A stretch of 64,000 bases of DNA from Escherichia coli (GCF_044324875.1 NZ_CP172185.1); one strand, 5' to 3'; shown: positions 40,063-63,236, numbered from the stretch's first letter. Numbers and translations are program-made. Notes: generated by a model from the sequence alone, not told the origin.

Positions 40063-41151
40063 ATGCCTCACAATCCTATCCGCGTGGTCGTCGGCCCGGC
40101 TAACTACTTTTCACATCCAGGAAGTTTCAATCACCTGCACGATTTTTTCACTGATGAACAGCTTTCTCACGCGGTGTGGATCTACGGCGAACGCGCCATT
40201 GCTGCGGCGCAAACCAAACTTCCGCCAGCGTTTGAACGGCCAGGGGCAAAGCATATTTTGTTTCGCGGTCATTGCAGCGAAAGCGATGTACAACAACTGG
40301 CGGCTGACTCCGGTGACGACCGCAGCGTGGTGATTGGCGTCGGCGGCGGCGCACTGCTCGACACCGCGAAAGCCCTCGCCCGCCGTCTCGGTCTGCCGTT
40401 TGTTGCCGTTCCGACGATCGCCGCTACCTGCGCAGCCTGGACACCGCTCTCCGTCTGGTATAACGATGCCGGACAGGCGCTGCATTATGAGATTTTCGAC
40501 GACGCCAATTTTATGGTGCTGGTGGAACCGGAGATTATCCTCAACGCGCCGCAAGAATATCTGCTGGCGGGGATCGGTGACACGCTGGCGAAATGGTATG
40601 AAGCGGTGGTGCTGGCCCCGCAACCAGAAACGTTGCCGTTAACCGTGCGGCTGGGGATCAATAATGCGCAGGCCATTCGCGACGTATTGTTAAACAATAG
40701 CGAACAGGCGCTTGCCGATCAGCAAAATCAACAGTTAACGCAATCATTTTGCGATGTGGTGGATGCGATTATCGCCGGAGGTGGAATGGTCGGTGGTCTG
40801 GGCGATCGTTTTACGCGTGTGGCGGCGGCCCATGCCGTGCATAACGGTCTGACCGTGCTGCCGCAAACCGAGAAGTTTCTCCACGGCACCAAAGTCGCCT
40901 ACGGAATTCTGGTGCAAAGCGCCTTGCTGGGTCAGGATGATGTGCTGGCACAATTAACCGGGGCGTATCAGCGTTTTCATCTGCCGACTACGCTGGCGGA
41001 GCTGGAAGTGGATATCAATAATCAGGCGGAGATCGACAAAGTGATTGCCCACACCTTACGTCCGGTGGAATCCATTCATTACCTGCCGGTCACGCTGACA
41101 CCAGATACGTTGCGTGCAGCGTTCGAAAAAGTGGAATCGTTTAAAGCCTGA
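40063..41151 (+). CDS. ybdH: iron-containing alcohol/hydroxycarboxylate dehydrogenase family protein YbdH
   Basis: 362 aa; nucleotide-binding GGGALLDTAKA motif. Confidence 0.85.
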   Translation: MPHNPIRVVVGPANYFSHPGSFNHLHDFFTDEQLSHAVWIYGERAIAAAQTKLPPAFERPGAKHILFRGHCSESDVQQLAADSGDDRSVVIGVGGGALLDTAKALARRLGLPFVAVPTIAATCAAWTPLSVWYNDAGQALHYEIFDDANFMVLVEPEIILNAPQEYLLAGIGDTLAKWYEAVVLAPQPETLPLTVRLGINNAQAIRDVLLNNSEQALADQQNQQLTQSFCDVVDAIIAGGGMVGGLGDRFTRVAAAHAVHNGLTVLPQTEKFLHGTKVAYGILVQSALLGQDDVLAQLTGAYQRFHLPTTLAELEVDINNQAEIDKVIAHTLRPVESIHYLPVTLTPDTLRAAFEKVESFKA

Positions 41152-41160
41152 CGTACATAT

Positions 41161-41358
41161 TTAGCAGCAGCGCGCGCCGCCTTTTCCACCGTAGCGCGCG
41201 TCCTGCCGCTCACGGAAAAACTCCTCGTAGGTCATCGGCGTTTGATCGGGATGGTTAACCCGCATATGTTCGACATAGTTGTCGTAATCAGGCATACCAA
41301 TCATCAGCTTCGCCGCCTGACCTAAATATTTTCCGGCTTTTGCCAGTGAATCAAACAT
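41161..41358 (-). CDS. ybdD: DUF466 small protein YbdD (partner of CstA)
   Basis: 65-aa ORF matching remembered YbdD, downstream of cstA on the same strand. Confidence 0.8.
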
Positions 41359-41390
41359 TAATACCTCCGGTAATCAGGTTGCCAGGAGAG

Positions 41391-41428
41391 TGCCGGATGC
41401 GGCGTGAACGCCTTATCCGGCCTACAAA
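41391..41428. repeat. REP (repetitive extragenic palindromic) element
   Basis: TGCCGGATGCGGCGTGAACGCCTTATCCGGCCTAC, canonical E. coli REP; the same sequence recurs at 63137. Confidence 0.75.
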
Positions 41429-41450
41429 TGCTATCAACGCGCTCGGTCAG

Positions 41451-41496
41451 TCCCCTCGCCCCATCGGGGAGAGGGTTAGGGTGAGAGGGAACCCTC
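41451..41496. repeat. G/C-rich palindromic intergenic repeat adjacent to REP
   Basis: CCCCTCGCCCC-ATC-GGGGAGAGGG followed by GAGGG-AA-CCCTC; imperfect palindromes typical of BIME-associated units. Confidence 0.4.
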
Positions 41497-41539
41497 GGCA
41501 CTATGCCAACATTCGCCAACATCCCCCCTCACTCTGACT

Positions 41540-43645
41540 TTAGTGTGCGCCTTTTGCCTGCGCCACGATCTCCTCGACATTTTCCGGCATCGGCTCATAC
41601 GGCGTTTCTTTCGCCGTTGGCTTCGGCTCTTTCAATGCCGCCAGTGCCGTCTTAATCGAGAACAGCGCCAGAACCACCACGACCACCATAAAGAAGATGG
41701 TTAACCCAGCATCCAGACGGTTGTTGAATACCAGTTGCGCCAGTTGTGACTCAGTATACTGCGACGGAATATTGCCGCTGTCGATCATTGCCTGGAACTT
41801 GTTAGCAATCGCCAGGAAGCCGACTTTCGCATCCGGGCTAAACGCTTTCTGCCAGCCAGCGGTCAGTGTACAAATCAGCAGCCAGGCCGTTGGTACCAGC
41901 GCCACCCAGGCGTAACGTTGACGTTTCATTTTGAACAGCACCACGGCACAAAGCATCAGCGCCATTCCTGCCAGCATCTGGTTGGCAATACCAAACAGCG
42001 GCCACAGAGTGTTAATACCGCCCAGCGGATCGACCACACCCTGATGGAGGAAGTAGCCCCACGCCAGTACGCACAGCGCCGTTGCCAGCAGGTTAGCAGG
42101 CAGTGAATCGGTCCGTTTCAGGCCCGGAGACACCACGCCCAGCAGATCCTGCAACATAAAACGCGCAGCTCGCGTACCTGCATCCACCGCCGTCAGAATA
42201 AACAGTGCTTCAAACAGAATGGCGAAGTGATACCAGAACGCCACATCCATCATGCCGCCCAGCGCGCCGTGCAGAATGTAGGCCATCCCCACCGCCAGCG
42301 TCGGCGCACCGCCCGCACGGGAAATGATCGACTGTTCACCCACTTCGCTGGCAATCTGGTTGAGCGTATCTGGTGTAATGCTAAAGCCCCAGCTACTCAC
42401 CACCTGCGCGGCAGAAGCGACCACATCCGCCGTCCCTGCCGGAGCCAGCACCGCCATCGGGCTGTTCATAGCGAAGTACACACCTGGATCGATGATACAG
42501 GCGGAAACCAGCGCCATAATCGCCACGAAGGATTCCATTAACATCCCGCCGTAGCCGATAAAACACGCCTGCCCTTCGTTCGCCAGCATCTTCGGCGTGG
42601 TACCGGAAGAGATCAGCGCATGGAAGCCAGACACCGCGCCACAAGCGATGGTGATAAACAGGAACGGGAACAGGTTACCGGTCCATACCGGGCCAGTGCC
42701 ATCAACAAACTTAGTCAGCGCAGGCATGGTCAGCGTCGGGCGCATAATCAAAATGCCTACTGCCAGGCCGACGATAGTCCCGATTTTCAGGAAGGTAGAG
42801 AGGTAGTCACGCGGGGCCAGCAGCAACCACACCGGCAGCACCGCCGCCACGAAGCCGTAACCCACCAGCATCCAGGTCAGCTGCACACCCGTAAAATCAA
42901 AGTACGGTGCCCAGGTCGGGCTTTCTGCCACCCAGCCGCCAGAGATAATGGCGAAAATCAGGAATACCAGGCCAATCACCGATACTTCGCCAATACGCCC
43001 CGGACGCAGATAACGCAGGTAGATCCCCATAAACAGCGCCAGCGGAATGGTGAACGCAACGGTATACGTTCCCCACGGACTATGGGTCAGGGCTTTCACC
43101 ACGATCATCGCCAGCACGGCAAGGATAATGACCATGATCATAAAGCAGGCCACCAGCGCAATCACCCCGGCGGTTGGCCCCATCTCTTCTTTGACCAACT
43201 CACCCAGCGAGCGACCGTCACGACGCGTAGAAACAAACAGCACCATGAAATCCTGCACTGCACCGGCGAGAACCACCCCGGCGAGTAGCCAGATCATCCC
43301 TGGCAGGTAGCCCATTTGCGCTGCCAGCACCGGCCCAACCAACGGACCTGCTCCGGCAATGGCCGCAAAATGGTGACCGAACAGCACTTTCTTGTCCGTC
43401 GGCACATAGTCCAGGCCGTCGTTATGGCGCACCGCTGGCGTCATACGCGTCGGGTCAACTGCCAGCACATTTTTGGCGATATACAGGCCATAAAAACGGT
43501 AAGCGATCAGATAGATACAGACCGACGCCACCACAATCCACAGTGCGTTGATCTGTTCCCCACGATTTAAAGCAATGTATCCCAGAGCAAATGCTCCCAT
43601 TACAGAGAGCACTGTCCAGACGAGGTATTTCCCTGATTTGTTCAT
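41540..43645 (-). CDS. cstA: carbon starvation protein A (peptide/pyruvate transporter family)
   Basis: 701 aa polytopic membrane protein matching remembered CstA. Confidence 0.92.
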   Translation of the reverse strand: MNKSGKYLVWTVLSVMGAFALGYIALNRGEQINALWIVVASVCIYLIAYRFYGLYIAKNVLAVDPTRMTPAVRHNDGLDYVPTDKKVLFGHHFAAIAGAGPLVGPVLAAQMGYLPGMIWLLAGVVLAGAVQDFMVLFVSTRRDGRSLGELVKEEMGPTAGVIALVACFMIMVIILAVLAMIVVKALTHSPWGTYTVAFTIPLALFMGIYLRYLRPGRIGEVSVIGLVFLIFAIISGGWVAESPTWAPYFDFTGVQLTWMLVGYGFVAAVLPVWLLLAPRDYLSTFLKIGTIVGLAVGILIMRPTLTMPALTKFVDGTGPVWTGNLFPFLFITIACGAVSGFHALISSGTTPKMLANEGQACFIGYGGMLMESFVAIMALVSACIIDPGVYFAMNSPMAVLAPAGTADVVASAAQVVSSWGFSITPDTLNQIASEVGEQSIISRAGGAPTLAVGMAYILHGALGGMMDVAFWYHFAILFEALFILTAVDAGTRAARFMLQDLLGVVSPGLKRTDSLPANLLATALCVLAWGYFLHQGVVDPLGGINTLWPLFGIANQMLAGMALMLCAVVLFKMKRQRYAWVALVPTAWLLICTLTAGWQKAFSPDAKVGFLAIANKFQAMIDSGNIPSQYTESQLAQLVFNNRLDAGLTIFFMVVVVVLALFSIKTALAALKEPKPTAKETPYEPMPENVEEIVAQAKGAH

Positions 43646-48705: not shown

Positions 48706-48842
48706 TTCGGTCGCTAACCTAAAAGCAAACGCGCACTATGTCAACTCTTGAGGTAACGCAATCTGCAACTCGGGGTTGCATCTGCTTGTGGTTACAATGA
48801 AAATGAGAAGCATTAACTTCATTAATAACAGGAAGCTGATTT

Positions 48843-63136: not shown

Positions 63137-63236
63137 TGCCGGATGCGGCGTGAACGCCTTATCCGGCCTACAAAAATCTTGCCAATTCAATATATTGCAG
63201 GACCACGTAGGCCTGATAAGCGTAGCGCATCAGGCA
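63137..63236. repeat. BIME: two REP elements in opposite orientation downstream of fepA
   Basis: TGCCGGATGCGGCGTGAACGCCTTATCCGGCCTAC at 63137 and GTAGGCCTGATAAGCGTAGCGCATCAGGC at 63207. Confidence 0.75.

Follow-up and report, generated by a model that had tools for sequence, protein, structure and literature searches.

What lies between cstA and ybdD in Escherichia coli, and does it influence how much of each message is made? In the stretch of E. coli DNA analyzed here (64,000 nt; hereafter, the window), the two genes follow one another on the minus strand, separated by a spacer rich in palindromes (Table 1). CstA and YbdD act together in the uptake of pyruvate (Hwang 2018), and AlphaFold-Multimer predicts a CstA-YbdD complex. 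According to RegulonDB, as quoted in Kaplan 2016 (PMC5100583), cstA and ybdD are separate units (1/1 each). The window is approximately 96% identical to K-12 across 41100-41800, K-12 not being the source strain, and it matches strains such as Ecol_316 and 042 at up to 99.7-100%. The RefSeq annotation of K-12 carries no repeat features, and REP names could therefore not be confirmed there.

Table 1. Features of the cstA-ybdD region, in window coordinates, from cstA to hcxA.
Feature	Position	Strand	Description and basis
cstA (pyruvate/peptide transporter)	41540-43645	-	701 aa; ORF list, Pfam CstA E=4.8e-257, RefSeq annotation of matching genomes
cstA stop codon TAA	41542-41540	-	
cstA-ybdD spacer	41359-41539		181 nt
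Remaining block of the inverted, truncated second BoxC	41522-41538	-	H1 5' arm and 5-bp outer helix; RNA GUCAG.GAGUGAGGGGGGA
Linker of the BoxC pair (H1 loop)	41492-41521		Inner GGC/GCC hairpin at 41497-41507
BoxC/PIT/TMECO/HPG1 unit	~41437-41491	G-rich strand on +	~55 nt: 15-nt conserved flank, 36-nt core, GGAA; alignment of 8 K-12 copies
BoxC core block 3, GGGTGAGAG	41479-41487		A at 41486 deviates from consensus
BoxC core block 2, GGGAGAGGG	41467-41475		Followed by TTA
BoxC core block 1, CCCTCGCCC	41453-41461		
Equivalent of K-12 3' end 632098	41442	-	Transferred by alignment; 10 nt 3' of H2, upstream of REP, 84 nt before ybdD AUG
A/U-rich linker between BoxC and REP	41426-41436	-	RNA GUUGAUAGCAUUUGUA covers the linker and adjoining bases; unpaired in MFE and centroid structures
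Solo y-type REP (RNA hairpin H3)	41391-41425	-	35 nt; stem GCCGGAT/ATCCGGC with AA/GC bulge; exact repeat, inverted repeat I1, fold
REP-side flank	41369-41390	-	RNA CUCUCCUGGCAACCUGAUUACC; alignment of Escherichia alleles
ybdD Shine-Dalgarno GGAGG	41364-41368	-	5 nt upstream of AUG; kept in all Escherichia alleles
ybdD (small partner of CstA)	41161-41358	-	65 aa; Pfam PF04328 'Sel_put'/DUF466
hcxA	40063-41151	+	Convergent with ybdD; 9-nt gap between stop codons (41152-41160)

According to our analysis, the spacer is a mosaic of two unrelated dispersed palindromic repeat families, a solo y-type REP at 41391-41425 and a BoxC module at approximately 41437-41536. Other kinds of element were sought as well. 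A consensus scan of both strands of 41100-41750 returned 0 terminator-like sites and no sigma-70 consensus within the spacer (a promoter of ybdD inside cstA is possible). An Rfam scan of 41000-41900 detected no riboswitch or sRNA family, its single match being a sub-threshold one to naRNA4 (RF02564, REP325-derived) at 41319-41422(-), which scores 39.2 bits against a gathering threshold of 59.5; we rejected membership, the match reflecting similarity to a REP only. Two ORFs in the spacer (65 aa on the plus strand and 54 aa on the minus strand) were likewise rejected, since they lie wholly inside the repeats and are disrupted by indels of 28, 38, 54, and 69 nt between alleles.

The REP is canonical, as the earlier note had it. 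The 34-nt sequence GCCGGATGCGGCGTGAACGCCTTATCCGGCCTAC occurs at exactly two places in the window, 41392-41425 and 63138-63171 (0 expected, from 100 shuffles), and reading both places directly extends the identity to 38 nt (41391-41428 and 63137-63174), which bears out the claim that the element is identical to the copy after fepA. Its minus strand reads GTAG-GCCGGAT-AA-GGCG-TTCA-CGCC-GC-ATCCGGC-A, with the GTAG tag at 41425-41422 (CTAC on the plus strand) just 5' of a 35-nt palindrome which carries the AA/GC bulge and whose 14-nt arms are 86% complementary. It is extragenic and highly repeated, megablast placing the REP region at a median of at least 37 sites in each genome. The E. coli y class is described by GTAG, a bulged imperfect palindrome, and a length of 35 nt (Corneloup 2021, PMC8266576), and the cstA-ybdD REP has all the testable defining features of that class. 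It shares with the E. coli y-type REPs (REPtron Ec; Stern 1984; Corneloup 2021, PMC8266576) the tag, the 35-nt bulged imperfect palindrome, the extragenic position on the 3' side of a gene, and the many near-identical copies, but it stands by itself, lacking the inverted REP of a BIME, and is missing at this locus from approximately 28% of complete E. coli genomes.

That lack of a partner bears on the label of REP/BIME cluster which the earlier note gave to the spacer, of which the REP part stands and the BIME part does not. A BIME consists of a REP and an inverted REP with a linker; the REP tail motif occurs once in the cstA-ybdD spacer, and the whole window holds three REPs, the other two forming its only pair, after fepA (63138-63235). 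Since the spacer has one REP only, the element is a solo REP and not a BIME, and no DNA-level BIME function, such as IHF or gyrase binding, is implied. The BIME after fepA (63137-63236) is a true one, made of a y-type REP at 63137-63171 and an inverse 29-nt z1-type REP at 63207-63235 around an A/T-rich linker of 35 nt (aaaaatcttgccaattcaatatattgcaggaccac). This linker may resemble the IHF-binding L motif of BIME-1.

The imperfect G/C-rich palindromes next to the REP, which had been attributed to the same cluster, are present as inverted repeats but belong to an unrelated family that has received four names: BoxC (1990s), PIT for 'potential intrastrand triplex' (Hoyne/Maher 2000), TMECO (Holder 2015, PMC4666352), and HPG1 (Kaplan 2016, PMC5100583). 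The K-12 copy at this locus is listed in Table 1 of Kaplan 2016 (PMC5100583) as HPG1/HPGQ no. 19, 51 nt after cstA and 108 nt before ybdD, with its midpoint at 632058 on the minus strand. In accordance with the HPG1 description, the GGGAGAGGGTTAGGGTGAG core is intergenic and contains four G-tracts (41466-69, 41473-75, 41479-81, and 41487-89) in the pattern G3N1-7 x4; this core has one match in the window, where 0 are expected. Conservation continues past the core, as in a BoxC unit of approximately 56 bp with multiple dispersed copies: in our alignment, 8 other K-12 copies likewise have the GGAA tail and the 15 nt that flank the core on its 5' side. The 100 nt at 41440-41539 match 14 places in the median E. 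coli genome, and the BoxC half is thus a dispersed repeat too.

As described by Bergler 1992 and Hoyne/Maher 2000, both as cited in Holder 2015 (PMC4666352), and in PMC5100583, BoxC, PIT, TMECO type A 'mm', and HPG1 are one element, and the copy studied here shares with it the C/G/G three-block layout, the TTA second loop, the 15-nt flank, and the intergenic, multicopy nature. It deviates by one mismatch from the strict BoxC/TMECO pattern of Holder 2015, CCCTCNCCC N3-6 GGGNGAGGG N3 GGGNGAGGG: the third block is GGGTGAGAG instead of GGGNGAGGG, which is why the strict pattern fails and why the K-12 copy is not among the 23 strict K-12 copies tabulated there (Holder 2015, PMC4666352). At this locus, the KE55 allele conforms perfectly to TMECO type A 'mm'.

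The cstA-ybdD copy is further set apart by being fused to a linker and, next to the cstA stop codon, to a single remaining block of an inverted partner that has been truncated. In K-12, the fepB-entC spacer holds two BoxC units in inverted arrangement (TMECO nos. 7 and 8), and this pair aligns with window positions 41424-41536 at 77.6% identity over 116 nt, linker included (BLAST, E = 8e-17). Both have the order unit A, linker (homologous at 41492-41521), inverted unit, but at cstA-ybdD the first block alone of the inverted unit (CCCCCCTCAC) is retained, abutting the stop codon; the alignment thus identifies the imperfect G/C-rich palindromes as a truncated inverted BoxC pair. Within the H1 loop there is also a 10-nt tandem duplication, GCCAACATTC/GCCAACATCC (41505-41524, direct repeat D5), which is found in the BoxC-bearing alleles and not in the CFSAN061763-type allele or other Escherichia species.

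No further TMECO-like motif was detected in the 64-kb window. At its own fepB-entC spacer (48813-48815), the 183-bp segment that holds the inverted BoxC/TMECO pair in K-12 (NC_000913 624541-624724) is cleanly missing, with a 3-nt junction overlap. Elsewhere in K-12, a REP lies within approximately 100 nt of BoxC at three of the eight other BoxC loci examined (pstA-pstB, frlR-yhfS, and adk-hemH), which suggests that the two repeats are often neighbors; of these copies, that of pstA-pstB lies, in addition, within an operon.

Comparison of the spacer across strains, which the earlier note had proposed, revealed that both repeats come and go. The window and K-12 alleles carry the BoxC module and the REP in spacers of 181 and 182 nt, respectively; the KE55 and WP5 alleles (153 and 143 nt) have BoxC without the REP; the CFSAN061763 allele (127 nt) has H1 and the REP without the BoxC core; and the JNEC-KY178 allele (112 nt) has H1 and a different hairpin (GCCCTCTTAATTCAGGAGGGC, then ATTTGTATT) in place of both the BoxC core and the REP. 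By junction-specific megablast of 5,426 complete E. coli genomes, 3,695 have BoxC and the REP, approximately 340 to 370 have BoxC without the REP (the KE55 and WP5 junction queries cross-match, hence only their sum is reliable), 134 are of the CFSAN type, and 1,189 are of the JNEC type, with neither repeat and a Citrobacter-like hairpin instead. The REP is consequently missing from approximately 1,540 of the 5,426 genomes and the BoxC core from approximately 24%, and in every genome sampled both cstA and ybdD are annotated as intact. It follows that the REP is not required for ybdD expression and, as about a quarter of the genomes lack each element while keeping both genes, that any effect of either is non-essential and may be neutral.

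The alleles also bear on how the REP was lost. In every Escherichia allele with the REP, the REP-side flank accompanies it, and the flank is kept where the REP is lost: the REP-less BoxC alleles retain it (GCACTCT.TCAGCAACCTG), and the JNEC-KY178-type allele lacks the 17 nt CTCTCCTGGCAACCTGA which make up most of it. This pattern suggests secondary losses of the REP. The WP5 allele equals the window allele less 38 nt between two GCA triplets. The 3' side of the REP holds CT dinucleotides (CACTCT), and excision by a TnpA_REP-type (RAYT) transposase was considered as a route and rejected, because the WP5 deletion ends at GCA/GCA microhomology and not at a CT cleavage site, which makes slippage or ordinary deletion as likely as TnpA_REP excision.

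Folded as RNA in the cstA sense, 41340-41560 has a minimum free energy of -87.1 kcal/mol (z = -2.4) and is predicted to form three consecutive hairpins: H1 (-27 kcal/mol), in which the leftover inverted block pairs with the third BoxC block; H2, the BoxC core hairpin (-17 kcal/mol); and H3, the REP hairpin (-20.9 kcal/mol). The unpaired A/U-rich linker between BoxC and the REP is a candidate entry site for an endonuclease. When the plus-strand RNA was folded with G-quadruplexes allowed, a plain hairpin was chosen. Every E. coli allele retains H1 and at least one more hairpin. In the H1 of E. albertii (alignment A2, L006 1075-1130), both sides of one pair are changed, from A-U in E. coli to U-G, and the pairing is intact, which may be a small hint that the stem is maintained. 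The outer 5-bp helix begins 1 nt past the UAA of cstA, and H1 starts 1-7 nt past that stop codon, where it might stall terminating ribosomes. A REP near a stop codon is said, in work by Liang, Rudd and Deutscher from 2015, to reduce translation.

Hairpins at this position extend well beyond E. coli. A YbdD scan of species-representative genomes yielded 80 loci, and the end of cstA could be placed in 77 of them, giving spacers of 14-195 nt (median, 63 nt). Of the 77 Enterobacteriaceae species spacers, 74 contain a single hairpin with dG <= -15 kcal/mol. When the 74 spacers with a length of 40 nt or more were compared with dinucleotide shuffles, 64 had z < -2 (median z = -3.4). The sequences that supply the hairpin vary. 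E. albertii, E. whittamii, and a cryptic Escherichia clade have H1 and the same REP without the BoxC core. In Citrobacter, Salmonella arizonae, and Kosakonia, the spacer measures approximately 50-63 nt, and (G)TTTG comes after its one CCCTCTCC/GGAGAGGG hairpin, which the second hairpin of the JNEC-type allele clearly resembles; in C. freundii and Atlantibacter, the hairpin is followed by TTTTT. Enterobacter, Lelliottia, and Leclercia have a REP class of their own (GCCGGGTGGCGC..GCGCTTACCCGGCCTAC; GCCGGGTGGCGCnnGCGCTTACCCGGCCTAC) between cstA and ybdD (L022, L025, L029, L035, L051, L061, L083, and others, at approximately 1140-1200). A BoxC-core-type hairpin is found in 31 of the 77 spacers, BoxC occurring singly or as inverted pairs in Enterobacter, Leclercia, Lelliottia, Phytobacter, Pluralibacter, Pseudocitrobacter, and Cedecea, and full inverted pairs are present in several genera (e.g., L016, L019, L062, L065, L066, and L072).

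Two records retrieved by the scan carry unexpected labels. A 465-bp contig labeled Streptomyces sp. DH24 (L010) encodes a YbdD that is 98% identical, and a metagenome-assembled genome labeled Bacillota (L036) has an Enterobacter-like cstA-ybdD locus with the Enterobacter REP and BoxC; both have the appearance of public assemblies affected by contamination or mis-binning.

The pairing of a transporter with a DUF466 protein, which the earlier note had said to recur at other CstA-family loci, is indeed found again at btsT-yjiX (Pfam CstA/PF04328). Its K-12 spacer of 49 nt (L094 2581-2629) contains a GC hairpin, AGCCCCGC-TTCG-GCGGGGCT, followed by TTGTTCTT, and is terminator-like. Both loci have a CstA-family transporter, a hairpin, and a small PF04328 gene preceded by a ribosome-binding site of its own, so that the layout of transporter, hairpin, and small gene is common to the two paralogs; unlike the cstA-ybdD spacer, that of btsT-yjiX has one simple GC hairpin with a T-rich tail, without REP or BoxC. 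From the species survey and the paralog together, the conserved feature is a stem-loop before the PF04328 gene, not a sequence family. The REP and BoxC are thus dispensable, strain-variable passengers at an intergenic site that bears a hairpin in almost all Enterobacteriaceae.

Whether these passengers affect the cstA message can be approached from published RNA ends. Term-seq of K-12 identified a 3' end at 632098(+) in LB at OD600 2.0, which precedes ybdD by 84 nt and has approximately 1,686 reads (Adams et al. 2021, PMC7815308, Supplementary files 1 and 3); with approximately 1,700 reads, this is a modest end, seen in one of three conditions and in K-12 instead of the window strain. As curation of the peaks in Adams 2021 retained one per 100 bp, an end associated with the REP could be hidden. 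On the opposite strand, antisense to the end of cstA, the same study (Adams 2021, PMC7815308) places a region of Rho termination at K-12 631994(-), with a Rho score of 4.5 and p = 8e-6; in the window, this corresponds to approximately 41545(+). ybdD and hcxA are listed as a convergent excludon; since they converge, read-through RNA from hcxA would cross ybdD, the REP, and BoxC in the antisense direction, and the position of the Rho region implies that it spans all of ybdD and the repeat spacer.

Precedents exist for a hairpin that fixes a 3' end. Stable stem-loops, of which REPs are only some, set the trimmed 3' ends of Rho-terminated transcripts (Dar & Sorek 2018), and REP hairpins are described there as established 3' stabilizers, with reference to Newbury 1987 and Khemici & Carpousis 2004. 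The intercistronic REP stabilizer of malE-malF (Newbury et al. 1987, as cited in Dar & Sorek 2018) resembles the present case in having stable palindromic hairpins between the genes of one transport system, with protection of the upstream message from 3'->5' decay as the expected result; at cstA-ybdD, however, the mapped 3' end comes after the BoxC hairpin and not after the REP.

In our judgment, the palindromic repeats of the spacer are dispensable and probably serve as hairpin barriers on the RNA, and it is BoxC, not the REP, that would mark the observed 3' end of cstA. Transcripts from the cstA promoter would run through the spacer, and part of the cstA-ybdD RNA may be cut in the A/U-rich linker, or ended downstream, and then trimmed 3'->5' up to the BoxC hairpins, which would leave a protected cstA-only RNA. 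The read-through RNA would supply ybdD, which could be translated independently from its own strong Shine-Dalgarno sequence, and the outcome would be more cstA message than ybdD message. The REP would serve as a redundant second barrier, also standing in the antisense path of the convergent hcxA read-through. Because CstA and YbdD act together and a complex is predicted, a device that sets their ratio is plausible.

The main rival makes pure passengers of both repeats, selfish or neutral DNA accumulated at a permissive site, with an RNA 3' end that is incidental and invisible to selection. The coexistence of four or more alleles in E. coli agrees with this, as do the unusual variability of TMECO loci (Holder 2015, PMC4666352), the clean absence from the window of the neighboring fepB-entC BoxC pair of K-12, and the frequent adjacency of REP and BoxC at loci such as pstA-pstB, frlR-yhfS, and adk-hemH. 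Neutrality would, however, leave unexplained that a stable hairpin persists in 74 of 77 species and at btsT-yjiX despite the changing sequence family, and that no E. coli allele falls below H1 plus one further hairpin, and we regard this rival as possible but somewhat unlikely.

The reading of the earlier note, in which a REP/BIME cluster stabilizes the upstream cstA message through its REP and sets the coupling to ybdD, is plausible in its mechanism, given that a canonical REP is present, that REP hairpins are known 3' stabilizers, and that the cstA-sense RNA of this one has a folding energy of -20.9 kcal/mol. It appears to name the wrong element: there is a single REP and no BIME, the mapped sense 3' end falls after BoxC and before the REP, and the frequency of REP-less genomes counts against it as well, so that in this form we find it unlikely.

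Still less probable is that the cstA unit ends at a transcription terminator and that ybdD has a transcript of its own. The 1/1 units given by RegulonDB according to Kaplan 2016 would fit, as would the hairpins with T-rich tails in other genera and at btsT-yjiX and the very existence of a 3' end within the spacer; on the other hand, no hairpin in the spacer is directly followed by the T/U run of an intrinsic (Rho-independent) terminator, an end 10 nt past a stem is typical of exonuclease stalling and not of intrinsic termination, and there is no promoter consensus between the 3' end and ybdD, the REP leaving 32 nt only before the AUG. Least probable of all is a DNA-structure element, in which the G-rich strand of BoxC (window plus strand, the cstA template) would adopt an intrastrand triplex or switch between G-quadruplex and hairpin, and so block polymerases, regulate transcription, or promote local rearrangement: the four G-tracts and the listing of the K-12 copy as HPG1 no. 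19 agree with it, family consensus oligonucleotides form triplexes or G4 in vitro (Holder 2015, PMC4666352; Kaplan 2016, PMC5100583), and strains differ by extensive rearrangement of the spacer, in which deletions leave hairpins that can still fold ('palindrome effect'), but in vivo DMS footprinting found no triplex and a dominant duplex form (Holder 2015, PMC4666352), earlier tests of PIT/BoxC elements, as summarized in Holder 2015 (PMC4666352), detected no promoter or terminator activity, and the window copy has an extra mismatch in its third block and yields a plain hairpin in the G4-aware fold of its plus-strand RNA.

Returning to the reading of the repeats as RNA hairpin barriers, the hairpin at this site is supplied by plain CCCTCTCC/GGAGAGGG stems in Citrobacter, Salmonella, and Kosakonia, by genus-specific REPs in Enterobacter, Lelliottia, and Leclercia, by single BoxC units or inverted pairs in at least eight genera, and by BoxC with a y-type REP in most E. 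coli. A bolder and rather doubtful extension is that the hairpin of cstA-ybdD and btsT-yjiX is a selected device for balancing expression whose sequence is recurrently replaced ('hairpin turnover'), BoxC being here the determinant of the cstA mRNA 3' end that sets the ratio of transporter to small subunit. A plain hairpin of this kind could be the seed from which BoxC units arise.

The element and its K-12 location are in the literature, and the spacer is to that extent already known, an ordinary composite of two known repeat families. What is added is a corrected label, a solo REP and a truncated BoxC pair instead of a BIME, together with four natural alleles, having both repeats, either, or neither, which provide a ready allelic series for the balance between CstA and YbdD. 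These alleles and the BoxC-linked 3' end are useful but unsurprising leads. The published 3' end points to BoxC over the REP as the end of the cstA message and would be among the few functional hints for BoxC, which has long been regarded as functionless; hairpin turnover, if true, would give it a 3'-end role at cstA.
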